41,105 nt of DNA from Minisyncoccota bacterium (GTDB lineage: Bacteria > Patescibacteriota > Minisyncoccia > Phycocordibacterales > UBA2100), in contig DASSSZ010000002.1 in NCBI GenBank assembly GCA_035708165.1, forward strand, positions 1 through 41,105. Reading direction: 5' to 3'. The notes under the pieces are model-generated. The model ran no database searches. It had not been told where the DNA came from and saw only the letters and a list, made by a program, of their open reading frames with translations. Position 1 is the first letter of the stretch; each line of letters starts with the position of its first letter. Both the position numbers and the translations under genes were made by a program. Below, in pieces: positions 2,397 through 32,307 of the stretch.

Positions 2397-4925
2397 CTAC
2401 TCGACGATCCGCCAGCCTTGCGCGAGCATCAGCTCCGCCTTCTTGTACTTCACCGTCTGGGACTCTGAGCCGTTGGTGATGGTGACGCGATCGTTGCGAT
2501 CATGCTTCTTGGCGTGTGCGGCCGCCTGGCTCCCCTGCCCCTCCTTGGTGAGCTCGAGCGCGGCTGCGTGCACCTCTGAGAGCTGGGCCTGCTCGACTGG
2601 GGCCTGCTGGGCAGCCGGCTGGACTGAAGCCAGCTGCGTGATGAGGCGTACCACATCCTCGGCATAGGAAGCCTCGAGCTCCTGGAAGAGGCGGAGACCC
2701 TCCTTCTTGTACTCCACCAAAGGGTCGCGCTGCCCGTATGCGCGCAGGGAAACGCTGTTGCGGAGATAATCCATGGTCTCGAGCTGGTCCACCCAGAGCA
2801 TGTCGATCGTCTGGAGCATCAGGCGGCGGACGATTGCATAGTACGCGACCTCGCCGAGCTCCTGCTTCTTCTTCGCGAAGGCGGCGTGCGCTTCCTCATC
2901 GCCGTCGGCGATGCGCAGGAGCTCCTGGTCGATCGCCTCATTGCTCCCGAGCAGGAGCTCGCGTCGCCGCGCGTAGATGGTCTGGCGCTGCACGTTCAGC
3001 ACGTCGTCGTACGCGAGGACCTGCTTGCGGCCATCGAAGTGGAATTCCTCGATCTTGGTCTGCGCCTTCTCGAGCGAGCGGGTGATGATACGATTCTGGA
3101 TCGGCTCATCCTCCGGGATGCGGAAGGTCCCCATCAGGCTCTTGATCGTGTCCGCGGCGAAGACGCGCATGAGCGGGTCCTCGAGCGAGACGAAGAACTG
3201 GGTCTCCCCCGGGTCGCCCTGGCGGCCGGCACGGCCGCGGAGCTGATTGTCGATGCGTCGCGCCTCATGCCGCTCGGTGCCAAGCACGAAAAGGCCGCCG
3301 TTCTCCCGCACTTCCCGCTCGGCCTCGGGCGAGCCGGGATTGCCGCCGAGCTTGATGTCCACTCCGCGCCCGGCCATGTTGGTCGCGATCGTGACAGCGC
3401 CCGGGGCGCCGGCTTGGGCCACGATCTCCCCTTCCCGCTCGTGATTCTTCGCATTGAGGATCTCGTGCGGGATGCCTGCCTGCCGGAAGTGCGCGGAAAG
3501 GAGCTCGTTCTTCTCCACCGAGACGGTGCCGACGAGGACCGGCTGCCCTTTCTCATGGAGCTGCTTCACCTTCGCGCTGATCGCCTGGAACTTCCCCTTC
3601 TCCGTCTGGAAGATGAGGTCGTCGTGGTCGATGCGCGCGATCGGCTTGTTCGTGGGGATGGCGACGGTCGTGAGGCCATAGACCTTGTAGAACTCCTCGT
3701 TCGAGGTCACGGCGGTTCCGGTCATGCCGGCGAGCTTGTCGTAGAGGCGGAAGAAGTTCTGGAACGTGATGGATGCCATCGTGCGGCTCTCGCGCTGGAT
3801 GGGTACGCCCTCCTTCGCCTCGATCGCCTGGTGCAGCCCCTCGCTCCAGCGGCGGCCCGGCTGGAGGCGGCCCGTGAACTCGTCCACGATCACCACTTCC
3901 CCATCGCGCACTACGTAGTCGCGATCGCGCTCGTAGAGCGCCTCGGCCTGGACCGCCTTCTCGAGATGATGGACGTACTTGATGCCCTTATCCGTATAGA
4001 TATTTTCGAGGTTGAGCGCGCGCTCCGCCTTCTCGATGCCTGAATCCGAGATCTCGATCTGCTTGCGCTTCTCATCCACCTCGTAGTCCTCGCCGCGCGT
4101 GAGCGACTTGGCGATCGGGACGAACTGCTGATAGAGCGCTTCCGCCTCGGCGACCGGTGCCGAGATGATAAGCGGCGTACGAGCCTCGTCGATGAGGATC
4201 GAGTCGATCTCGTCCACGATGGCATAGGCATGCGCGCGCTGGCGGAGCATGGCCGGGTCGTACTCGAGGCTGTCGCGCAGATAGTCGAAGCCGTACTCGT
4301 TATTCGTGCCGTATGTGATATCGGCCGCATACGCTTCGCGGCGCTCGCAGGTGCGCAGGAAATCGTGCTCCACCTTGAAGGAACCGAGCTCATCGCGCTC
4401 CTGGTCATCTTCCGGCGTCGCCGTCTCGGCATCATAGAGGAACGAGACCTCGTGGTTGAGGACGCCGACCGTAAGCCCCAGGGCGTCATAGACCTGGCCC
4501 ATCCATGCCGCATCGCGGCGGGAGAGGTAATCGTTCACCGTGACTACGTGCACGCCCTTGCCCGCAAGCGCATTCAGATAGACCGGCAGCGTGGCCACCA
4601 GGGTCTTGCCCTCGCCCGTGCGCATCTCGGCGATGTTGCCCCAGTGCATGATGATGCCGCCCACGAGCTGGACATCGAAATGGCGCAGGCCGAGCGTGCG
4701 CTGGGCAGCCTCCCGGACGGCCGCGAACGCCTCGGGCAGGAGGTCGTCGAGCGTCTCGCCTGCCGCGAGGCGCTCCCGGAACCGGGCGCTGATGCCTGCG
4801 AGGTCGGCGTCCGTAAAGGCCCGGAACTCCTCCTCCCGGGCGTTGATCGCGGCGACGAGCGGCTCCGTCTTGCGCAGGAGCGCTGCCTGCTCATCGGTAC
4901 CCATCAGGCGTGAAAATAAGGCCAT
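2397..4925 (-). CDS. secA: Preprotein translocase ATPase SecA
   Basis: AEMRTGEGKT Walker A, VHVVTVNDYL, AIVDEIDSILIDEARTPLIIS, LRGRAGRQGDPG. Start placed at MALFSRL (4925) because TAGAAT lies 8 nt upstream. Confidence 0.97.
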   Translation of the reverse strand: MALFSRLMGTDEQAALLRKTEPLVAAINAREEEFRAFTDADLAGISARFRERLAAGETLDDLLPEAFAAVREAAQRTLGLRHFDVQLVGGIIMHWGNIAEMRTGEGKTLVATLPVYLNALAGKGVHVVTVNDYLSRRDAAWMGQVYDALGLTVGVLNHEVSFLYDAETATPEDDQERDELGSFKVEHDFLRTCERREAYAADITYGTNNEYGFDYLRDSLEYDPAMLRQRAHAYAIVDEIDSILIDEARTPLIISAPVAEAEALYQQFVPIAKSLTRGEDYEVDEKRKQIEISDSGIEKAERALNLENIYTDKGIKYVHHLEKAVQAEALYERDRDYVVRDGEVVIVDEFTGRLQPGRRWSEGLHQAIEAKEGVPIQRESRTMASITFQNFFRLYDKLAGMTGTAVTSNEEFYKVYGLTTVAIPTNKPIARIDHDDLIFQTEKGKFQAISAKVKQLHEKGQPVLVGTVSVEKNELLSAHFRQAGIPHEILNAKNHEREGEIVAQAGAPGAVTIATNMAGRGVDIKLGGNPGSPEAEREVRENGGLFVLGTERHEARRIDNQLRGRAGRQGDPGETQFFVSLEDPLMRVFAADTIKSLMGTFRIPEDEPIQNRIITRSLEKAQTKIEEFHFDGRKQVLAYDDVLNVQRQTIYARRRELLLGSNEAIDQELLRIADGDEEAHAAFAKKKQELGEVAYYAIVRRLMLQTIDMLWVDQLETMDYLRNSVSLRAYGQRDPLVEYKKEGLRLFQELEASYAEDVVRLITQLASVQPAAQQAPVEQAQLSEVHAAALELTKEGQGSQAAAHAKKHDRNDRVTITNGSESQTVKYKKAELMLAQGWRIVE

Positions 4926-4944: not shown

Positions 4945-4977
4945 GGAAACGCCCCGCTGCGAGAGCGGGGCGTTTCC
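4945..4977 (-). terminator. Terminator hairpin after the H1-like gene
   Basis: 14-bp stem ggaaacgccccgct/agcggggcgtttcc. Confidence 0.65.
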
Positions 4978-4990
4978 GAGAAAGACACGA

Positions 4991-5167
4991 CTATTTGCGG
5001 CGACTGCTCTTCTTCGCAGTCTTGCGGTGCGTGGTCTTCTTCGCAGCCTTGCGATGAGTCTTCTTCGCGGCCTTCTTAGCGACCTTGCGATGGGTCGTCT
5101 TCTTCGCGGCTTTGCGATGAGTGGTCTTCTTGGCTGCCTTCTTGGCGTGAGTCTTCTTTGCTGCCAT
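4991..5167 (-). CDS. Small histone H1-like Lys/Ala-rich DNA-binding protein (58 aa)
   Basis: MAAKKTHAKKAAKKTTHRK... built from AAKKTTHRK repeats; 21 Lys, 6 Arg, no acidic residues; followed by its own hairpin. Confidence 0.85.
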   Translation of the reverse strand: MAAKKTHAKKAAKKTTHRKAAKKTTHRKVAKKAAKKTHRKAAKKTTHRKTAKKSSRRK

Positions 5168-5365
5168 ACGTGATGTATTGATACGATGCTGGTAATCGAC
5201 CACGTTCCTCGCATTGTTCGCCGGAACGTTTTCTCAATTATCAAGCACGCGATGCATACGTACAATGCATTCGCGCGAAAACTGTGGAAAACTCTTGCGC
5301 AAAGATATGCATGCATATTCATATTTCTTTCAGAGAGCGCGGGGTACGCATCCTCAGCGCAACGC

Positions 5366-5391
5366 GACGCGCCGCCCGAAGGCGGCGCGTC
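5366..5391. repeat. 11-bp GC hairpin (UUCG loop on the minus strand)
   Basis: gacgcgccgcc-cgaa-ggcggcgcgtc. Confidence 0.7.
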
Positions 5392-5610
5392 TTGCTTTCG
5401 GAGCACGCCGTGGAGGACGGGTGCGAGCTCCAAAGGTGAAGATCGTTTTTGTGAGTGCCGCCGTCCTCCACGCCATGCTCCGGCGGCATATTCAGGATAG
5501 CACACCGAGAGACCAAGCCACCCATTTCCGCCACCCCTCACCCCGCCACCATCTCGTACCCGCCTCGTACCCGCTCCGTACCTATACTCCTATCCCACAC
5601 TGCCATCCAT

Positions 5611-5650
5611 CTATCCCCACATCTGCGCGGCCGCGCAGATGTGGGGATAG
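5611..5650. repeat. Perfect 40-bp palindrome, copy 1 (downstream of the PaaX/Cas2-like gene)
   Basis: ctatccccacatctgcgcgg|ccgcgcagatgtggggatag. Confidence 0.95.
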
Positions 5651-5691
5651 GCAGATAGGACGCTACCAGCAAGAAGCAAGCTTATTGCGGA

Positions 5692-6255
5692 TCAGATGCC
5701 GAAATGTTCCCGCAACGGCTTGTCGCGCTCGATCGACTCTACGATCAAGTACAGGATACTGCCGCTCGTACCAATGTCCGTCTTCAGCAGGCTTACGAAT
5801 TCTTCGCAATCATACGGATATACCCACGCACTATCCTGCAGGCGATAGAAGCCGAAAGCTGCCAATCGGCGACGGAATGCATCGCGCAGCCGGTGCCGAT
5901 TCTCTGGAATATCGAACATAACCATCCGCCACCGGCGATCCCACCGTCGCGGCTTCTTCGTTCCAGCCTCATGCCGTTGCAATTCTCGGCGGCCAGCTTC
6001 AGTTATCTCGATGTGCGTCCTCCCCGCAATAGTTACGAATCTGACCATGCCCTTTTCTGCAAGTCGGCTGGCAACGGACTTAAGGCGGTAAGAGAATTTG
6101 CTCTTGCTCCCCGTAATGCCGCCGAGCAACTGAATGACGTTCGGTGCCGCGGCGGCCAATACGACCAGGCCAGGGACTGCCACTGCCGCAAGCAACGCGC
6201 GCTGCACGTCTCCCCTCCTGCGAGCTGCACGCGCTTGATCTTCCTGCGCACCCAT
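5692..6255 (-). CDS. PaaX-family / Cas2-like domain protein (187 aa; N-terminal wHTH-like region plus Cas2-like ferredoxin domain)
   Basis: RWDRRWRMVMFDIPENRHRLRDAFRRRLAAFGFYRLQDSAWVYPYDC is typical of the PaaX central Cas2-like domain family common in CPR. TATGAT -10 lies 7 nt before the ATG at 6255. Confidence 0.88.
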   Translation of the reverse strand: MGAQEDQARAARRRGDVQRALLAAVAVPGLVVLAAAAPNVIQLLGGITGSKSKFSYRLKSVASRLAEKGMVRFVTIAGRTHIEITEAGRRELQRHEAGTKKPRRWDRRWRMVMFDIPENRHRLRDAFRRRLAAFGFYRLQDSAWVYPYDCEEFVSLLKTDIGTSGSILYLIVESIERDKPLREHFGI

Positions 6256-6262
6256 AGAGGAA

Positions 6263-6268
6263 ATCATA
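6263..6268 (-). promoter_or_regulatory. -10 box (TATGAT) of a leaderless promoter, abutting palindrome copy 2
   Basis: TATGAT-7 nt-ATG. Confidence 0.65.
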
Positions 6269-6269
6269 C

Positions 6270-6307
6270 ATCCCCACATCTGCGCGGCCGCGCAGATATG
6301 GGGATAG
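6270..6307. repeat. Palindrome copy 2 (38 bp, 1 mismatch to copy 1), over the promoter of the PaaX/Cas2-like gene
   Basis: atccccacatctgcgcggccgcgcagatatggggatag. Confidence 0.95.
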
Positions 6308-6418
6308 GTTCGGGGTGCGGGAGGCGGGAGGTGATGCGAGGAGTGGGCGGAGGTGCGAGGAGTGGGCGGCGATGCATAGGGCGGAAAGAGGTGGGTGGAA
6401 TTGGTGGATGCATCTGCC

Positions 6419-6802
6419 GATGCTGCGCATCGGGGAAGGGTGGCAACGTAAACCCACACGTCGCATCGGGCTGGAAAGGCCCGATGCGCTCGCGGGCCTG
6501 CCTCAGCAGCCTGGCTGCATGCGCTTCGCGCATAGTCAGGAACTCCGGCCTCCGGCAGTCCTATGTTTTTGTCCTCCTGCTGATGCTGCGCATCGGGGAA
6601 GGGTGGCAATGTAAACCCACACGTCGGCTCGCTACGCTCGCCGCGTCTGGGCGCGCCTCGCCGCCCGAATCGCAGCCGGGCCATAGGCCCGCGCGATTCG
6701 GGGCCCGGCTCCGGCGGTTTTGCATTGCCGCCTCCGGCCCGAAGCTACGCTTCGGGTGAGGAGCGGCAACGTAAAACCCCGCCGGGGCGGGGTGTTACGT
6801 TG
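6419..6802. repeat. Array with ~160-nt period: two 45-bp direct repeats plus a third partial copy, with hairpin-rich spacers
   Basis: gatgctgcgcatcggggaagggtggcaa(c/t)gtaaacccacacgtcg at 6419-6463 and 6582-6626. The core ggcaacgtaaa(a)ccc recurs at 6765, overlapping a 17-bp hairpin (6767-6802). Confidence 0.85.
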
Positions 6803-6875
6803 ATCTTCCTTTGGAGAGCGCGCACATCGCACTCACAGGGATAGCATAACGCCTCCCCTACTCTCCCGCAAGGCA

Positions 6876-9083
6876 CTACTGCACCTTGAGCGTGCCGTTC
6901 CTGATCTGCGTGATCAGCGACTGCGCCTCAGACTTCACCGAAGCGTCCTGCGTGCTTGCCGCGATGGATTCGAGCTGGCTGATTGCCTTGCTCGTCTGGC
7001 CATCCTGGTAGTAGGCGGCTGCGAGCCCGAACTGCGCCTGGAGATTCTCCGGATGCGCCGCAAGGTAGCCCTGCCAGATCGAGATGAGCTTGCCGTACTG
7101 CTTGGTAGCCGCGTATGCCGCGACCACGCGCTGGTCCGCGATGATCCCCTTGCCGGCAAGATCGCTCACGAGCTGGTCCGCCTCGTCCGTCTTGCCATCG
7201 TAGATGGCTGCCATGGCGTAGAAGGCTTCGGCATCCGTATCGCTCGTATCGAGCTCGTACGTCTGCTTGAGGAGCTGGTAGGCCTGATCGTTCTGGCCGA
7301 GGGCGATCTGCGCGAGCGCGAGCTGGAAGCTGATCGTCTGCTTCGCCGGCGAGAGGTCGTGCGCCTTCTCGAGGCTCGGGAGCGCGCTCGTGGCATCGCC
7401 CGAGGAGGCAACGAGTGCGCCGAGGAAGAGCGGGAATCGCGCATCGAGCGGCGCTTCCTGCATCTGCTTCTGCATCTCGCTGGTGGCGAGCTGGTAGAAG
7501 CTGGTGCGCGTCGAGGTGGCGATGCTGGTCTGCCCGATCACATTCATCGCGATCTGCACGAGCTGCTCGCGGGTCTCCTGCTCGCCGAGGCTGTTATACG
7601 AGAGTGCCTTCTCGAAATCGTCGAGGCTGGCCTCCGGCGTCGACTGCGAGACAGCGGAAAGGAGCGCGCGATTCTGCTGGTAGGCGTTCCAGTTCACGAG
7701 GTAGACGGTCCCGAGGCCAAGCACGATGCCGGCAGCGGCAAGGTACGGCAGCGCGACCGCGGGGACGAACCCTCGCGCCGGAAAAGCAGGCGACCCGCCT
7801 TCGCGCGTCGCGCGTACCGCGATATAGCCCAGCACGAAGACGAACATGAGATAACTCGTGATGTTATCGAACACCACCATGTTATTGACCACATAGCCCG
7901 CAAGGAGGCCGGTGAGGAGCGCGCGTTCGAGCGGCGTGAAGGCGGCGCTCCGCCAGAGCATCCAGAGCGCGGCGACGAAGATGCCGCAGTACGCGAGGAA
8001 GCCGAGGAGGCCGCCCGCGATCAGCCAATCGAAGACGATGTTGTGCACGCGGTCGAACCACTGCTCCTGCGCCCACATGGCCGGGTTGTAGTACTTATCG
8101 AAGACGACGTTGTACTGCGACTGCCCCCACCCGAGGAGCATGCGCTGCGGGCTCTCCGTGAAGCCCTGCCATGCCATGCCCCAGTTCATGAATCGAGCGA
8201 TCGTCGTATCGTCCGTGAGCGAGATGGATGCAAGCCGGTGCAGCGGGCCCACTTTCTGCACGATCGGCGTATTGATGAGGAGGAAGAAGAGCCCGACCAG
8301 CACCACGAAGCCCCCGAGGATGCCGACACTCGCCTTCCACAGCACCTTCGATTCGCGGCCGATGAAGAGCATCAGGAACGCGGAGAACAGGACGCCAGCG
8401 AAGAGGCCGAGGATGGCCCCGCGCGTCTCGGTGAAGAAGAGGGAGAAGAACTGGAGCGCCATGATGGGCCCGAGCGCCCAGCCCCATCCGCGCCTGCCCT
8501 CGCGCCAGAGCTGCATCCAGAGCATCGCTGTGATGAAGAGCAGGAAGAGCATGTAGACGGCAAGGTAGGTGGAGTTGCCGAGGGTGGCATCGAGCCGCGT
8601 CGAGCCCTGGTCGATCGGAATCATCCCGATGAACTGCAGGATGCTATAGAAGCCCACGATGACCGAGATCCCGATATTGGTGGCGAAGAACCAGCGCCAG
8701 AGCCGCTCCACATGCAGCATCGAGCTCATGACCACGAAGAGGACGAAGAGGTGCGCGAGCGTCACCCAGCCCTCCATCCGCTCGAAGTTGCTCCAGAAGC
8801 TCTTGAAGGGATCCGTGCCCTGCAGATCCGCCACTGCGATGATCGCGATGAAGATCGCGAACGCACCGAGGAGCCAGGAGCGCTTCGGCCGGTACGTCGG
8901 CGAGACGAGCGCCAGCATGAGCCAGAGCGCTGCGATGAGCTCGACGACGACGCGGAAGAAGAAGTTCTTCCCCGTGATGAAGGGGAAGAACATGCTCTGA
9001 GTAATGATGAGCGGCACGATCGGCAGCACGAAGATGCCGCCGAGGATCGTCCACTTGAGGGCTTTCTCGATGAAGGTGTTCAT
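6876..9083 (-). CDS. O-antigen ligase/oligosaccharyltransferase-family membrane protein with C-terminal TPR repeats
   Basis: Multiple TM helices; RLDATLGNSTYLA, FTETRGAILG, LLGWGQSQY and DRVHNIVFDWL motifs; helical TPR-like C-terminus. Confidence 0.85.
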   Translation of the reverse strand: MNTFIEKALKWTILGGIFVLPIVPLIITQSMFFPFITGKNFFFRVVVELIAALWLMLALVSPTYRPKRSWLLGAFAIFIAIIAVADLQGTDPFKSFWSNFERMEGWVTLAHLFVLFVVMSSMLHVERLWRWFFATNIGISVIVGFYSILQFIGMIPIDQGSTRLDATLGNSTYLAVYMLFLLFITAMLWMQLWREGRRGWGWALGPIMALQFFSLFFTETRGAILGLFAGVLFSAFLMLFIGRESKVLWKASVGILGGFVVLVGLFFLLINTPIVQKVGPLHRLASISLTDDTTIARFMNWGMAWQGFTESPQRMLLGWGQSQYNVVFDKYYNPAMWAQEQWFDRVHNIVFDWLIAGGLLGFLAYCGIFVAALWMLWRSAAFTPLERALLTGLLAGYVVNNMVVFDNITSYLMFVFVLGYIAVRATREGGSPAFPARGFVPAVALPYLAAAGIVLGLGTVYLVNWNAYQQNRALLSAVSQSTPEASLDDFEKALSYNSLGEQETREQLVQIAMNVIGQTSIATSTRTSFYQLATSEMQKQMQEAPLDARFPLFLGALVASSGDATSALPSLEKAHDLSPAKQTISFQLALAQIALGQNDQAYQLLKQTYELDTSDTDAEAFYAMAAIYDGKTDEADQLVSDLAGKGIIADQRVVAAYAATKQYGKLISIWQGYLAAHPENLQAQFGLAAAYYQDGQTSKAISQLESIAASTQDASVKSEAQSLITQIRNGTLKVQ

Positions 9084-20455: not shown

Positions 20456-22030
20456 CTACATGTCGCCGGGTATTTCCTCAATGATATCCCACGCCTTGCT
20501 GCCGCGTCGCCGCGCAGTAATGGCCGAGACGGAGCCGAGGCCTGCGAGGGCGCCTGCGCCGAGCACCCACGGCCACAGGGGCGAATCCTGCGCGGGGTCG
20601 TGCCCGCCTGTGCCGAGCGCGGCGGCAGCGAACCCGGCTGCCTCGGGCGAGGCGGTACTGCTCGCAGCGACCGCCCGAGACGGCTGCGGCTGCACAGCGG
20701 GTGCGGATCGCTCCGGGGCGTCCTGAACGGATGCGGCGCTCGCGATCCGCGTGCCGATGAGCGAGCTCGCGCTGCTGGTACGCGCGATCGGCTGCGGGGC
20801 GCGGGCCGGGACAGGCGCGGACTGAGGCGCGACCGGCACAGGAGCGACCGGCGCCATGGCGGCTGCCGGCGCCTCCCCTTCCGCGATAGCGGCATCGCCA
20901 TCAGGGTACTCGAGCATGACCGGATGCGTAATGAGCGTAAGGCCGGTGGTGCCGGGGGCGAACGGCACGGTCGCGCCGGGAAGGAGGCGCGTGTGCTCCG
21001 GCAGGGCGAATGCCTTCCCGCCCGAGGCAAGGATCCAGCCGGACAAGTCGAGCTCGCGGCTGCTCCTGTTGGTGATCGCGATCGAGCCGTCCGAGAGCAC
21101 GCTGAGGGACAGCTGCGCCGGCTCGGCATCCACCGTGATCTCGTCCATCGCGGCGAACTTGTGCTCAGCGAGCGTGAGCGTCACCGCATAGCGGCCGGGG
21201 TGGGCCCAATGGTGCAGGACCGCTTCGCCCTCCTTCGTGGCGCCGTCGCCGAAGTTCCAGATGAACCGTACCGCGGAAGGGTCGAGCTCGGTTCCGTCCT
21301 TCGCGAAGGCGCGGCCATCGAATTCCGCATCCGCGCCGACGGAGACCACACGGTCGCCGCCCGCGTACGCATAGAGCTGCGGCGTGACCGGGAATACGGA
21401 GGCCGGGGTGCTGCTTGCCGCAGCATCCTGCTGCGGATCCGTGCTTCCCGCATCCTGCGCAGCGCCGGCATCCTGATCCTGTGCTGTGCCATCTGCGCCT
21501 GCAGTGCCCGGATCCGCCGGCGACAGCGATCCGGTACCCGGCGTCGGCGCGGCAGCGGCGAAAGCGGTCCCGGCTGCGCTCGTGCGCGAGAGGCTCTCCC
21601 CGTCCGTACCTTCGGCTGCGTCGTACGTGATCGCGTCGGCAGTCACATCCTGCGCGTCGTGAAGCGCGAGCGGCTCGCCGCTGTTGCTGAGACTGAAGGC
21701 GCTGTCGAAGAGCTGCCCGGCGAAACCAGGATGGTCAGTAAGGAATAGGGCCGGATTATCAGCGATGACCGCATACGCCCCCGGCGCGAGCACGGAGCCG
21801 CCTTGGACCGCGCTGATGCGATGGTCCGTCTCGTTCTCATAGAAATGCCACTCGGTGAGCGGGACCGCCGATGCGCCGGCATTGAAGACTTCCACCCACT
21901 CGTGCCCCGCATCGGTGCCGTCCGGGTCGTACATGATCTCACTGATGACAGCCTGCGCGCTCACGACGAGCGGCGCGCCGCATGCGACGCATGCGACAAG
22001 CGCGCCCGCTGCTGCCGCCTTCGCGCTCAT
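20456..22030 (-). CDS. Secreted lamin-tail-domain + PKD-domain protein with C-terminal membrane anchor
   Basis: VISEIMYDPDGTDAGHEWVE (LTD), FIWNFGDG..HPGRYAVTLT (PKD), a second LTD-like ITNRSSRELDLSGW, an Ala/Pro linker, then a TM helix followed by RRR. Confidence 0.85.
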   Translation of the reverse strand: MSAKAAAAGALVACVACGAPLVVSAQAVISEIMYDPDGTDAGHEWVEVFNAGASAVPLTEWHFYENETDHRISAVQGGSVLAPGAYAVIADNPALFLTDHPGFAGQLFDSAFSLSNSGEPLALHDAQDVTADAITYDAAEGTDGESLSRTSAAGTAFAAAAPTPGTGSLSPADPGTAGADGTAQDQDAGAAQDAGSTDPQQDAAASSTPASVFPVTPQLYAYAGGDRVVSVGADAEFDGRAFAKDGTELDPSAVRFIWNFGDGATKEGEAVLHHWAHPGRYAVTLTLAEHKFAAMDEITVDAEPAQLSLSVLSDGSIAITNRSSRELDLSGWILASGGKAFALPEHTRLLPGATVPFAPGTTGLTLITHPVMLEYPDGDAAIAEGEAPAAAMAPVAPVPVAPQSAPVPARAPQPIARTSSASSLIGTRIASAASVQDAPERSAPAVQPQPSRAVAASSTASPEAAGFAAAALGTGGHDPAQDSPLWPWVLGAGALAGLGSVSAITARRRGSKAWDIIEEIPGDM

Positions 22031-23937
22031 TGGTCCGAAAGGACCCGGCGCAGGACCTCGGGCGGGATCTCGCTCGATCCCTGGCGCGCAGGAGCCTCGG
22101 GGGCTGCGGGAGCCGCAGGAGCGGGAGCATCCGCTGCTCGGGATGCGCGCAGCTGCGAGGGGGTGACCGGCTGCGGCTCGCCCGGCTCGCGTTCGTGCAC
22201 GCGCGGCTGCGCTGGCGCGGCAGGCTCAACATGCGCTGCTGCATTCCGCTGCATGGCAGCGGCTATCGCATCCTTGAGCGCATTGCGCTCGCGTTTCTCA
22301 TCTGGACGCGTGTGTGCATTCATAGCGGGCGCAGCATCCTCGGCGCTTGTCGGCTGCGGCTCCGGGCGCATGGCGGCAGGCTTCTCGGCGGCGGCCTGCG
22401 CGCGCAGGATCTCGGCGGGCGCCGTGGCCGGCCGCGGCATGCGCGGTGCGCCCTGATTGCGAGCGCCGGAAGGCGCATGCTCGGAGCGGCTGCCTGAAGC
22501 GCCATTCATGCCGCTCAGCGAGCCGTTCTGGCTGCCGCCCTGCGCACCGCCATGCCCGCTGCTGGAAGAGCCGTTGCCGCGCGAACCGTTGCCGCTCGTC
22601 CGCTTCGTCGGCGGGGTGATCGGGAATGCCGCGAAGCGCTGCTGGATGAACTCCTCCACCTTCGCGCGCGGGGTGCCGTAGTGCTCGCGCGTGTACTGCG
22701 TCACCTGCCGCCTGAAGGAGACCGGCGGCTGCTCGATCGGCGGAAGCGTCTGCGCCGAGAACGGCGGCGAGGTGATGCCGTCGATCGAGAGCGTGAGATA
22801 GATCTGCCCCACTCCGAGGCCGACCATGTCTTCTACGGTGAAGGTCGGCTCGAAGAGCGGTTCGAGCTCCTGCGCGTCCAAGGGGCCCACCTTGAAGACG
22901 ACCGTCGTTCCGACATTGCCGAAGACGGCGTCCTTCACGGCAGTGGAGTCCTTCTCGTTCAATTGCGCGATGAACTGGTTGGCGATGATGAGGCCCAGGC
23001 CGTACTTGCGCGACTCGGAGAGGATGTTGGCGAAGGCTTTGTTCACGACGTTCTGGAACTCATCCACGTAGAAGTAGCACGGCGGCAGCTGGCGCTGGCG
23101 CGAGAGGCTCTCCTTCGCGCGCGACATGGAGGCGAGATACGTGCGGATCACGAGCACGGCGCCGATCATGGTCGAGTTCGCGTCGCCCATCTTCCCCTTC
23201 GCCAGGTTGCAGATGATGATCTTGCGCTCATCCATCGCGCGACGCAGATCGAAGCTCGAGCGCGGCTGGCCGATGATATTGCGTACGAGCGGATTGCTGA
23301 CGAGCTGGCCCACCTTGTTCTGGATGGCCGGCGTCGCCTCCTGCGTATAGCGGTCGCCATAGTTGGCGAACTCTTCCGTCCAGAAGGATTTCACGATCTG
23401 GTCGGTCACATGCGCGACCACGTCGTTGCGGAATTCCTTATTGATGAGCATGCGGTTCACGTCGATCAGGGTCGAATCCGGATACTCGAGGAGCGCAAGG
23501 AGCGTGTTCTGCAGGATGTACTGCATGCGCGCGCTCCACGCGTCCGCCCAGAGGCGCTCGAAGACACCCATGAGGCCCGAGACTACGTTGTGGCGCTGGT
23601 CGAAGCCGACATCCTCCATGATGTTGAACGCGAGCGGGAAATCGGTATCGGACGGATCGAAATAGATGACATCCTTCACCCGCTCCTCGGGGATGAAATC
23701 GAGCAGCTTCTCCGCCGTGGACCCGTGCGGGTCGATGAAGATGAGCCCTTCCCCGTTCTGGATATCCTGGATCGCCATGTTCTCGAGCATGGTGGATTTG
23801 CCCACGCCCGTCTTGCCGATGACGTACATGTGCTTCAGGCGATCGATGGCGCGGATACCGAATGCCCGCGCCTTACCGCGCGTGTGCGTCGCCGCGAAAT
23901 AGGTGACGCGCGAGGGGTCGAGGAACTCATCAGCCAT
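22027..23937 (-). CDS. VirB4/TrwB/TraG-like (HerA-FtsK superfamily) P-loop ATPase with disordered C-tail
   Basis: HMYVIGKTGVGKS Walker A, FIDPHG, FYVDEFQ Walker B, SESRKYGLGLIIANQ, VFGNVGT. Confidence 0.88.
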   Translation of the reverse strand: MADEFLDPSRVTYFAATHTRGKARAFGIRAIDRLKHMYVIGKTGVGKSTMLENMAIQDIQNGEGLIFIDPHGSTAEKLLDFIPEERVKDVIYFDPSDTDFPLAFNIMEDVGFDQRHNVVSGLMGVFERLWADAWSARMQYILQNTLLALLEYPDSTLIDVNRMLINKEFRNDVVAHVTDQIVKSFWTEEFANYGDRYTQEATPAIQNKVGQLVSNPLVRNIIGQPRSSFDLRRAMDERKIIICNLAKGKMGDANSTMIGAVLVIRTYLASMSRAKESLSRQRQLPPCYFYVDEFQNVVNKAFANILSESRKYGLGLIIANQFIAQLNEKDSTAVKDAVFGNVGTTVVFKVGPLDAQELEPLFEPTFTVEDMVGLGVGQIYLTLSIDGITSPPFSAQTLPPIEQPPVSFRRQVTQYTREHYGTPRAKVEEFIQQRFAAFPITPPTKRTSGNGSRGNGSSSSGHGGAQGGSQNGSLSGMNGASGSRSEHAPSGARNQGAPRMPRPATAPAEILRAQAAAEKPAAMRPEPQPTSAEDAAPAMNAHTRPDEKRERNALKDAIAAAMQRNAAAHVEPAAPAQPRVHEREPGEPQPVTPSQLRASRAADAPAPAAPAAPEAPARQGSSEIPPEVLRRVLSDQ

Positions 23938-29870: not shown

Positions 29871-30029
29871 ATGATTCGCTTCGGAAGCCATACCGCACTC
29901 CGTGCGCGCTCTAGGGATCGAACCTAGGACCTTTCGAGTATCAGTCGAATGCTCTACCAACTGAGCTAAGCGCGCACGCAATGCGTTATGGAATGAACTG
30001 CCTGCGCGGAGCTTCCGAAGCGAATCATC
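29870..30029. repeat. 19-bp inverted repeat pair (29870-29888 / 30011-30029) enclosing tRNA-Ile
   Basis: gatgattcgcttcggaagc / gcttccgaagcgaatcatc. Confidence 0.85.
29903..29975 (-). tRNA. tRNA-Ile(GAU)
   Basis: GCGCGCU acceptor stem, UUCGA-CUGAUAC-UCGAA anticodon arm, UUCGAUC T-loop; CCA not encoded. Confidence 0.95.
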
Positions 30030-30056: not shown

Positions 30057-30091
30057 TCAGTCGAATGCTCTGCCAACTGAGCTAAGCGCGC
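30057..30091 (-). pseudogene. Duplicated 5' half of tRNA-Ile, truncated inside the anticodon
   Basis: 36-bp direct repeat of 29941-29976 with 1 mismatch, 116 nt away; TACTAT -10 lies 9 nt upstream. Confidence 0.85.
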
Positions 30092-30182
30092 AGTGGAAAG
30101 ATAGTAGCAAAAAAGGGGCTGCCATGCTACTCTCGATAGGCCGTAAGGCACTGTTCATCAAAAACCCACTGAGGAGGGATAG

Positions 30183-30581: not shown

Positions 30582-32307
<1,726 letters not shown>

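Follow-up and report, generated by a model that had tools for sequence, protein, structure and literature searches.

The 41,105-nucleotide (nt) stretch of DNA analyzed here (the window) is positions 1–41,105 of contig DASSSZ010000002.1 in assembly GCA_035708165.1 of a Minisyncoccota bacterium, and it carries, between an O-antigen-ligase-like gene (Wzy) and secA, an array of direct repeats separated by hairpin-rich sequences (positions 6419–6802). The array belongs to a Kaiserbacteria-like lineage of Patescibacteria, and we read it, with about even confidence and on the basis of comparative sequence analysis, as the hairpin-rich downstream part of an independently transcribed, conserved small-RNA locus, in which it would form a series of terminators on the minus strand. 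An earlier reading of the same DNA (the original prediction) had seen in it a repeat-spacer array beside a solo Cas2-fold gene and the strongest candidate for an undescribed system in the window; that view fails, and what takes its place is a duplicated terminator module. Our verdict is that the locus is of an undescribed but ordinary kind, a small-RNA and terminator locus with a tandem duplication.

A conserved small-RNA candidate downstream of the Wzy gene

The evidence that carries this reading comes from the end of the array that faces the Wzy_C/TPR gene (6876–9083, minus strand), where three features follow one another on the minus strand. Related loci are designated by L numbers.

6843–6871, minus strand: promoter-like site of the candidate small RNA, with a −35 element TTGCGG (6871–6866), a 17-nt spacer and a −10 element TATGCT (6848–6843)
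6759–6839, minus strand: candidate small RNA of ~75 nt (sRNA-T), with a 5′ hairpin from UGUGAGUGC and a 3′ end formed by terminator T
6767–6802, minus strand: hairpin T, CCCCGCC-CC-GGCGGGG and then UUUUACGUU, an intrinsic terminator by scan

The promoter-like site begins 5 nt past the Wzy stop codon, and hairpin T lies ~75 nt downstream of it. The distance from the −10 element to the invariant UGUGAGUG is 5 nt in the window and 5–7 nt across genomes. The promoter elements stand in register in the window, L088, L090, L091, and L095, the relatives having TTGCAC, TTGCAT, or TTGCAG separated by 16–17 nt from TATAAT, TACAAT, or TATACT; the context of the −35 element across the aligned copies is CTTGCA or CTTGCG. 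Hairpin T lies past a transcription unit and shows the GC-rich stem-loop and directly adjoining U-tract of an intrinsic terminator; in L088 the homologous hairpin was independently flagged as a terminator. It is 88–95% conserved in L088, L090, and L091 and recognizable in L092 and L095; L092 is a short contig, sharing the hairpin only, that was the one match in a scan of metagenome contigs for hairpin T. Conservation of 88–95% at the nucleotide level exceeds what is seen in the flanks, since the adjacent Wzy proteins are 55–56% identical. The locus is thus predicted to have the attributes of a small-RNA gene, namely a promoter and a terminator that are both conserved in position.

The alignment and consensus fold of sRNA-T comprise 22 pairs, four of them with compensatory changes, and the G-U pairs present in hairpin T of L090 and L091 are compatible with the minus-sense strand only. 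Covariance modeling, which the original prediction had proposed, was informative: a model built on six copies scored the window at 79.9 bits and recovered a seventh, untrained copy (L094 5250–5332; 58.4 bits, E = 7e-12) that lies directly downstream of a Wzy gene and has TTGACG-N16-TATACT in front of it.

Repeats and intervening units

The remaining features of the array, listed here without a strand, are as follows.

6414–6468: repeat R1, made up of hairpin h1 (6417–6433, CCGATGC-TGC-GCATCGG), the linker GGAAGGGTGG and the core GGCAACGTAAACCC(ACACGTCG)
6453–6496: hairpin X1, −26.3 kcal/mol on the plus and −30.5 on the minus strand
6510–6540: hairpin Y1 of unit 1, −16.8 kcal/mol, in the position of Y2 and of hairpin Y in L090 but different in sequence
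6577–6631: repeat R2, with hairpin h2 at 6580–6596; its central 45 nt have one mismatch to R1
6616–6651: hairpin X2 of unit 2, with an imperfect stem
6664–6702: hairpin Y2 of unit 2, CCCGAATCGC..GCGATTCGGG, −30.1 kcal/mol on either strand
6711–6731: segment B2, CCGGCGGTTTTGCATTGCCGC, complementary to the R3 core region 6763–6785
6737–6785: repeat R3, diverged, with hairpin h3 at 6738–6756, CCCGAAGC-TAC-GCTTCGGG

The repeat geometry first described was recovered in full by repeat search. It consists of a pair of 45-nt repeats with one mismatch (6419–6463 and 6582–6626; such a pair in none of 100 shuffles), a third copy of the core and a period of 163 and then 160 nt. Ungapped extension of the R1/R2 pair reaches 55 nt (6414–6468 and 6577–6631) at 93% identity, and the 14-nt core GGCAACGTAAACCC occurs three times (starts 6442, 6605, and 6765) where 0.06 occurrences are expected. 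The third core does lie within a hairpin, the 36-nt hairpin of 6767–6802 (−23.4 kcal/mol), and the third copy is longer than had been claimed: R3 can be aligned to R1 over 40 nt, small hairpin included (33/40, 82%; z = 12 against shuffles). The set is made up of two near-identical copies (45–55 nt) and one diverged copy, and no further copy was found in the window beyond the array.

The R3 core, GGCAACGTAAAACCCC, is at the same time the 5′ arm of hairpin T on the plus strand and its 3′ arm plus U-tract on the minus strand. Between h1 and h3 the stem has undergone a compensatory change (CCGATGC-TGC-GCATCGG to CCGAAGC-TAC-GCTTCGG). The differences between R1 and R2 are C-to-T, and the C-to-T in h2 preserves a G-U pair on the plus strand only; the repeat core also contains an ACGT palindrome. 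The hairpins named in the original prediction are present, and the strong folding of the region was likewise recovered, the fold of 6400–6830 being much stronger than that of shuffled controls whichever strand is taken (z = −5.8 and −6.3).

The sequences between the repeats had been described as unique spacers of ~118 nt. Long and folded they are (108–118 nt), but they are not unrelated. Pairwise local alignment of the two is not significant (z = 0.7), and their kinship becomes visible only in a three-way alignment with L090 (alignment A7, made with MAFFT, in which hairpin Y of unit 2 is set one column out of register). In it, unit U1 (6434–6596), unit U2 (6597–6756), and the L090 unit can be aligned over their full length and share the order core AACGTAAACCCACAMGTCG, hairpin X, linker GGGC..GCCTC, hairpin Y, box CTCCGGCNGT (segment B), and hairpin h. 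Hairpin X has a conserved base and three different apices, that of U1 making it 8 nt longer than in U2 and L090; the base of the X1 stem (CCCAC..GTCGCAT / ATGCGCTCGCGGG) is kept in L090, and X2 differs from X1 and L090 by changes on both sides of the stem (C-G to G-C and A-T to C-G). The sequence of hairpin Y differs in each unit (−16.8 kcal/mol in U1, −30.1 in U2, −19.3 in L090), and U2 and the L090 unit, folded separately, adopt identical topology. Judged from this alignment, the spacers are paralogous units that have diverged but keep their hairpins in one order. L090, the closest full relative, has one unit between two cores, as against two units with three cores in the window; with a common block order this identifies the array, at the level of sequence, as a tandem duplication of a ~160-nt unit.

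Coding is not indicated for these units. X1 is 8 nt longer than X of L090 with both flanks conserved, so that no reading frame is kept, and the open reading frames (ORFs) of the array lack the strong bias in G+C content at third codon positions (GC3) of the neighboring genes.

Long-range pairing is also predicted. Segment B2 and the R3 core would pair in a long helix around h3, in competition with the lower part of hairpin T. The corresponding B:C helix is predicted at −60.6 kcal/mol in the window and −55.4 in L090, the helix being kept although the sequences of its arms differ. Four related boxes, namely the 5′ core (A), segment B, the R3 core (C), and the 3′ arm of T (D), could in the predicted folds pair either as A:D together with B:C or as C:D, the latter being the terminator.

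Syntenic relatives and database searches

Relatives found through the Wzy protein, at 50–56% protein identity (L088/L089, L090, L095, and L096), show the order Wzy, non-coding stretch, small lysine-rich ORF, and secA. Their non-coding stretch up to the small ORF measures 134–880 nt; the window interval measures 1.9 kb including a PaaX-like gene, the one labeled Cas2-like in the original prediction. A gene of the PF20803 family between Wzy and secA is absent from the gene tables of L088, L090, L095, and L096. Synteny searches through PaaX-like homologues were unproductive, these genes lying in unrelated contexts and in several copies per genome, and exact look-up of the Wzy and PaaX-like proteins of the window itself returned no record.

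Parts of the array are conserved in these relatives. The window segments 6445–6466 and 6484–6504 (R1 core, base of the first hairpin, linker) match L090 8273–8324 at 95%, the R1 core and start of the next hairpin matching L090 8273–8294 at the same identity; the R3 core with its hairpin (6768–6808) is found as ~40 nt at 90–95% in L088, L090, and L091, and over 32 nt at 91% in L095. Nucleotide identity of this order is far above the neutral expectation at ~55% protein identity, which argues that the spacers are conserved functional sequence and not acquired cargo. In L090 the whole module of promoter, small RNA, terminator, and unit is inverted relative to Wzy and secA (L090 8264–8545 as against L088 8236–8425), as expected for a self-contained transcription unit when the inversion includes the promoter. 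L090 has an additional Wzy terminator at 8221–8263, and the contigs of L091 and L094 stop at most ~30 nt past hairpin T. Together with the inversion in L090, these contig ends may mean that the segment is variable or invertible within populations.

Only one public run, a soil metagenome of 11.65 million contigs, holds the genome. In this run the repeat was found, at 80% likeness or more, as two copies on one 3.2-kb contig and nowhere else, the sequences between the repeats were unique, and a single arrangement without alternative joints was seen. An exact-pattern scan of the metagenome contig collection for the R core gave no match. Rfam applied to the whole window at gathering thresholds reported 16S rRNA and a tRNA only, with no family at the array; permissive thresholds yielded in 5400–7000 and in L090 nothing but sub-threshold noise of microRNA type, and the loci of six relatives gave nothing. 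The blastn comparison of 6300–6830 with phage and plasmid collections was also without a match. By these searches the repeat is neither dispersed in the source run nor a known Rfam family. The 41-kb window contains no cas genes and no reverse transcriptase, integrase, transposase, recombinase, or RAYT gene, and its other genes are those of an unremarkable chromosomal region (secA, secDF, mur genes, ftsW, glycosyltransferases, 16S rRNA).

Proposed organization of the locus

Transcription would start at the minus-strand promoter just past the Wzy stop codon and would yield a small RNA of ~75 nt ending at hairpin T. R1 and R2 would be further copies of the module formed by the 3′ end of a stem, GGGUUUACGUUGCC, a C-rich stretch, and hairpin h, sitting at the 3′ ends of stems X1 and X2 as the first copy does at hairpin T. 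It is this common layout on the minus strand that leads us to read R1 and R2 as further terminator-like modules; on that strand the X1 stem ends in ..GUGGG with UUUACGUU directly after it, as in a terminator. Transcripts reading through T would stop or pause at X2 and X1, giving isoforms of ~75, 235, and 400 nt, and these serial stops would keep read-through transcription away from the inserted PaaX-like gene and the secA operon. The near-identity of R1 and R2 would result from constraint on the core, which is 95% identical even in L090, combined with an assumed local homogenization of sequence.

As to strand, hairpin energies are mixed and do not decide between the two. T (in L094 and L095) and all three X stems favor the minus strand, in whose direction the R1–R2 part would also be transcribed. 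Of the three options in the original prediction, that of a processed non-coding RNA array comes nearest to the evidence, but in one half only: a structured non-coding RNA locus is predicted from conservation, promoter, and terminator, whereas no sign of processing into units was found.

A number of observations weigh against this organization. R1 and R2 are 98% identical yet the hairpins between them have diverged, which the model explains incompletely. X1 and X2 resemble terminators in part, having short U-tracts (UUUACGUU) and mismatched stems and being unflagged by the terminator scan. On the plus strand, Y, h, and the B:C helix gain stability or lose none, and the C-to-T in h2 points to that strand too. 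Among the relatives, L090 alone has a full unit with a 5′ core, L088 and L095 having only the part of the array adjacent to T, and the covariation support comes from three to six sequences. The strict consensus promoter scan did not flag the proposed sRNA-T promoter, whose −35 element matches at 3–4 of 6 positions. Finally, a search of public RNA runs found none holding the window sequence.

The PaaX-like gene and its palindromes

The gene next to the array (5692–6255, minus strand, 187 amino acids) had been called Cas2-like, a label that does not hold at the family level. Its product scores 71 bits (8e-20) on Pfam PF20803 PaaX_M, which represents the Cas2-like domain in the middle of PaaX; on PF09827 Cas2 it reaches 18.3 bits, under the cut-off of 23.8. 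The NCBIfam model TIGR01573 (cas2) gives 27.4 bits against a cut-off of 24.5, though the match spans just 36 residues; TIGR02277 matches residues 58–156 with 34 bits against a cut-off of 264, and the PaaX_C domain is missing. The protein is a short relative of PaaX and not an equivalog. A hydrophobic stretch near its N-terminus (residues ~19–43) precedes the winged-helix-like part.

Members of this family are very common in Patescibacteria. Protein search gave 437 matches (best relative 58% identical), and among species-representative genomes 582 PaaX-like stretches were confirmed, a single genome often having several, in unrelated gene contexts. The repeat core of the array occurs in none of 87 PaaX-like loci of other genomes (624 kb). 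With relatives retaining the spacers at the syntenic site where they have no PaaX-like gene, this removes the suggestion that the array is accumulated cargo of the Cas2-like element. The gene has a GC3 of 0.64 where the flanking secA and Wzy genes have 0.86–0.89, and the G+C content of 4975–6175 is mostly under the window mean, which fits a recent foreign origin of the cassette. Given the atypical GC3 and the relatives that lack the gene at this site, the gene is most simply read as an unrelated insertion in the lineage of the window that has palindromic sites of its own.

These palindromes deserve attention of their own. Two copies of ~40 bp bracket the gene, at 6270–6305 (14 nt before the ATG) and 5611–5650 (41 nt past the stop codon), and the source run has a third, diverged copy on a different contig whose depth is similar. 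Across the PaaX_M/Cas2-fold family, the 120 nt upstream and 150 nt downstream share an exact word of at least 10 nt in 67 of 76 distinct loci, as against 20 of 226 in a cross-locus control. The palindromes of the family stand shortly ahead of the start codon and shortly past the stop codon and are locus-specific and ~40 bp long (L013, L023, L074, L087, and others; around 4001–4576), typically of the form TATCCA...GCTATAGC or GCGGTCGC...TGGATA, and some loci have one or two additional upstream copies at 100–280 nt spacing. The repeats truly tied to the Cas2-fold gene are these palindromes and not the R repeats; the simplest guess is that they are operator sites for autoregulation.

Between the promoter-proximal palindrome and R1, the window has a G-rich, GGAGG-rich tract (6310–6410; GC skew +0.44), and L013, L087, and L074 have a homopurine or homopyrimidine tract of ~100 nt between upstream palindrome copies. 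Hairpin h1 of R1 stands ~137 nt from the window palindrome, and in L013 and L074 a second palindrome copy stands at 139–141 nt.

Alternative readings

The main rival, though an unlikely one, is that the array encodes a rod-like structured RNA of ~250–400 nt on the plus strand, which would work either as a switch or in antisense to the minus-strand small RNA. In such a rod the 5′ core (A) would pair with the 3′ arm of T (D) and segment B with the R3 core (C), while X, Y, and h branch off. The minimum free energy folds of U2 and of the L090 unit arrive independently at this nested topology, the B:C helix persists despite its different arms, Y, h, and B:C are at least as stable in this orientation as in the other, and the h2 change keeps its G-U pair there only. 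The agreement in topology gives, however, no information on strand, complementarity being near-symmetric between the two. No promoter-like site was found upstream of R1 or R2, and in L090 the ~10 nt between the Wzy terminator and the 5′ core leave no room for one. There is no U-tract after T in the plus direction, and the X stems and T favor the minus strand.

Rather improbable, in our estimation, is a self-contained riboregulatory unit of an undescribed and orientation-variable kind. The terminator arm of its small RNA would have been copied two or three times downstream as decoy boxes, its long and short isoforms would adopt mutually exclusive folds, and its 5′ motifs (UGUGAGUGC, CUCCAAAGG, and GAAGAUC) would pair with the apical loop of Block A, a hairpin 1.3 kb away that is described below, forming a two-RNA circuit beside secA and the envelope-polysaccharide genes of Patescibacteria.

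We regard as improbable that the repeats act at the level of DNA, as sites of protein binding, recombination, or inversion with the hairpins as incidental palindromes. The inverted module of L090, the contigs of L091 and L094 that end at most ~30 nt past T as they might at variable or repeated sequence, the ~160-nt spacing, and the palindromic ACGT of the core would all suit such sites. Compensatory changes (h3 versus h1, X and Y between units) preserve stems, however, which speaks for structure over a sequence-specific site; inverted repeats were not seen at the borders of the inverted segment, the window has no recombinase gene, and the source run shows a single arrangement.

It is very unlikely that the array is a cluster of dispersed extragenic palindromes (repetitive extragenic palindromes, REP, or bacterial interspersed mosaic elements, BIME) or of miniature inverted-repeat transposable elements (MITE), as the original prediction had entertained for REP/BIME. 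The cluster is indeed intergenic and rich in hairpins, and a different 40-bp palindrome nearby, that of the PaaX-like gene, has a third copy elsewhere in the source metagenome. For the repeat itself, the 11.65 million contigs of the source run yielded no further copy at 80% likeness or more, the window has none elsewhere, and the metagenome collection gave no exact match; the inter-repeat sequences are unique in the run, and terminal inverted repeats and target duplications were not seen.

An array of clustered regularly interspaced short palindromic repeats (CRISPR) or a new repeat-spacer array, with spacers acquired by the adjacent Cas2-fold protein, is scarcely credible. Regular direct repeats beside a gene of Cas2-like fold are what speaks for it, with the 36-residue match to TIGR01573. 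The original prediction had itself judged repeats and spacers too long and structured for CRISPR, and this is borne out by the 108–118 nt and strong folding of the spacers. Furthermore, there are three copies only, one of them diverged, the spacers are conserved at the syntenic site of genomes that have no PaaX-like gene there, the repeat occurs in none of the 87 PaaX-like loci, the protein belongs with PaaX_M by the scores given above, other cas genes are absent from the 41 kb, and nothing in the array matches phages or plasmids.

Equally hard to credit is that the units code for two small paralogous plus-strand proteins (65 and 58 amino acids; shared N-terminus MLRIGEGWQ(R/C)KPTRR...): an in-frame ATG is present in both repeats with open frames from 6420 and 6583, but G+C by codon position is flat (0.73/0.58/0.58 and 0.68/0.69/0.75 versus 0.6/0.4/0.88 in neighbors), the second ATG has no ribosome-binding site before it, L090 has an in-frame TAG just upstream, and the 8-nt difference in hairpin X breaks the frame while its flanks are conserved.

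Other candidates were set aside. Motifs of sigma-54 type, an origin from a tRNA-like or attachment site, and integron attC sites had no supporting feature, and the window has no integrase. Template and variable repeats of a diversity-generating retroelement were rejected because the window lacks a reverse transcriptase and R1 differs from R2 by C-to-T changes, without adenine specificity.

Comparison with known systems

Small-RNA loci in tandem or multiple copies, with conserved boxes and variable parts, are known from OmrA/OmrB, PrrF1/PrrF2, and LhrC1-5. The present locus resembles them in having adjacent paralogous units in one intergenic region, a short box that is near-identical while the remainder is diverged but folded, and its own candidate promoter of sigma-70 type together with an intrinsic terminator. 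It differs in that a promoter is recognizable for the first unit (sRNA-T) only and that the repeated box is terminator-proximal rather than a seed; it has no sequence or Rfam relationship to those loci.

With bidirectional and fail-safe terminators the locus shares a GC-rich stem with a U-tract and an upstream A-rich stretch that pairs with the U-tract (ACGUAAAA / UUUUACGU), and, as in tandem fail-safe terminators, several modules stand in series downstream of a transcription unit. In contrast to plain terminators, U-tracts are short and stems imperfect in modules two and three, every module stands between a large hairpin before it and a conserved small one after it, and nucleotide conservation of 88–95% is far above what is usual for terminators between genomes this distant.

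CRISPR arrays likewise have regularly spaced direct repeats with a small hairpin and differing sequence in between. Here the spacers fall outside ~21–72 nt and are in parts 90–95% identical to the syntenic DNA of relatives, the copies number three, two near-identical and one diverged where CRISPR arrays have several near-identical repeats of ~23–55 nt, cas genes are absent, and the neighbor is a PaaX_M-family protein. Enterobacterial REP/BIME are similar as intergenic clusters of palindromic units near gene 3′ ends, whereas the units of the array are not dispersed, are longer, and contain several different hairpins. Finally, the four segments A, B, C, and D with mutually exclusive pairings recall attenuators and riboswitch platforms. 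Unlike in attenuators, the competing segments lie downstream of T on the terminator strand and would be unable to act during the transcription of T; unlike in riboswitches, neither a conserved core resembling an aptamer nor a match in Rfam was found.

Block A and other features of the window

A second structured region, Block A, is a long hairpin at 5400–5481 on the minus strand (flanks ~5385–5500), 94% conserved over 63 nt in L088, L090, and L095. Homologues occur at L088 8545–8650, L090 8662–8760, L095 5513–5605, and L083 6765–6840. Among five sequences, 10 of 29 predicted pairs show compensatory changes, and the G-U pairs fit the minus (secA-sense) strand. Block A is preceded at 6–8 nt by a −10-like hexamer and, in L090 and L095, followed by a terminator. 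It had no match in Rfam and no resemblance to the features of signal recognition particle RNA or 6S RNA; in all probability it represents a structured RNA not described before.

The apical loop of Block A carries GCACUCACA and GAUCUUCACCUUUGGAG, which are reverse complements of motifs in the 5′ part of sRNA-T. This 5′ part (6826–6837 and 6803–6825; UGUGAGUGC and GCGCUCUCCAAAGGAAGAUC) is the near-exact reverse complement of the loop at 5420–5460 (GCACUCACA and GAUCUUCACCUUUGGAGCUCGC), with the complementary boxes in permuted order. The pairs UGUGAGUG/CACUCACA and GAAGAUC/GAUCUUC recur in L088 and L090; in L095 the first is kept and the second box is one base off. Such complementarity may denote a pair of interacting RNAs or sites for a shared protein.

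Immediately upstream of secA is a small lysine-rich ORF (4991–5203, minus strand, 70 amino acids) with AAKKTTHRK repeats encoded by tandem repeats of 27/63 nt. Shorter lysine-rich ORFs (35–76 amino acids, AAKKRK...) occupy the same place in L088, L090, L095, and L096.

Elsewhere in the window, the 5′ half of tRNA-Ile(GAT) recurs over 36 nt (97%) at a distance of 116 nt (29941–29976 and 30057–30092), between the tRNA gene and the 16S rRNA gene (30755–32210); a 23S rRNA gene is absent elsewhere in the window. A direct repeat of 110 nt (1539–1648 and 1761–1870; 77% identity, 222-nt spacing) lies in the region of a long ORF (877–1938) that has no Pfam match. At 20456–23937 on the minus strand, a homologue of coupling proteins of TraG/TrwB type adjoins a Lamin-tail/PKD protein in housekeeping surroundings.

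Significance

The analysis removes a false lead, that of a repeat-spacer array beside a solo Cas2-fold gene, which arose because a PaaX-like cassette is inserted beside a duplicated terminator module. For the PaaX_M/Cas2-fold family, the bracketing of its genes by palindromes possibly matters more than the array does. To our knowledge, the non-coding RNAs of uncultivated Patescibacteria are almost unstudied. The region from Wzy to secA appears to contain at least two candidates for conserved, promoter-bearing, structured RNAs that are absent from Rfam, and these (the array with sRNA-T, and Block A) retain 90–95% nucleotide identity between genomes whose proteins are ~55% identical. They are possible entry points to RNA-based regulation near secA and the cell-envelope genes in Patescibacteria.

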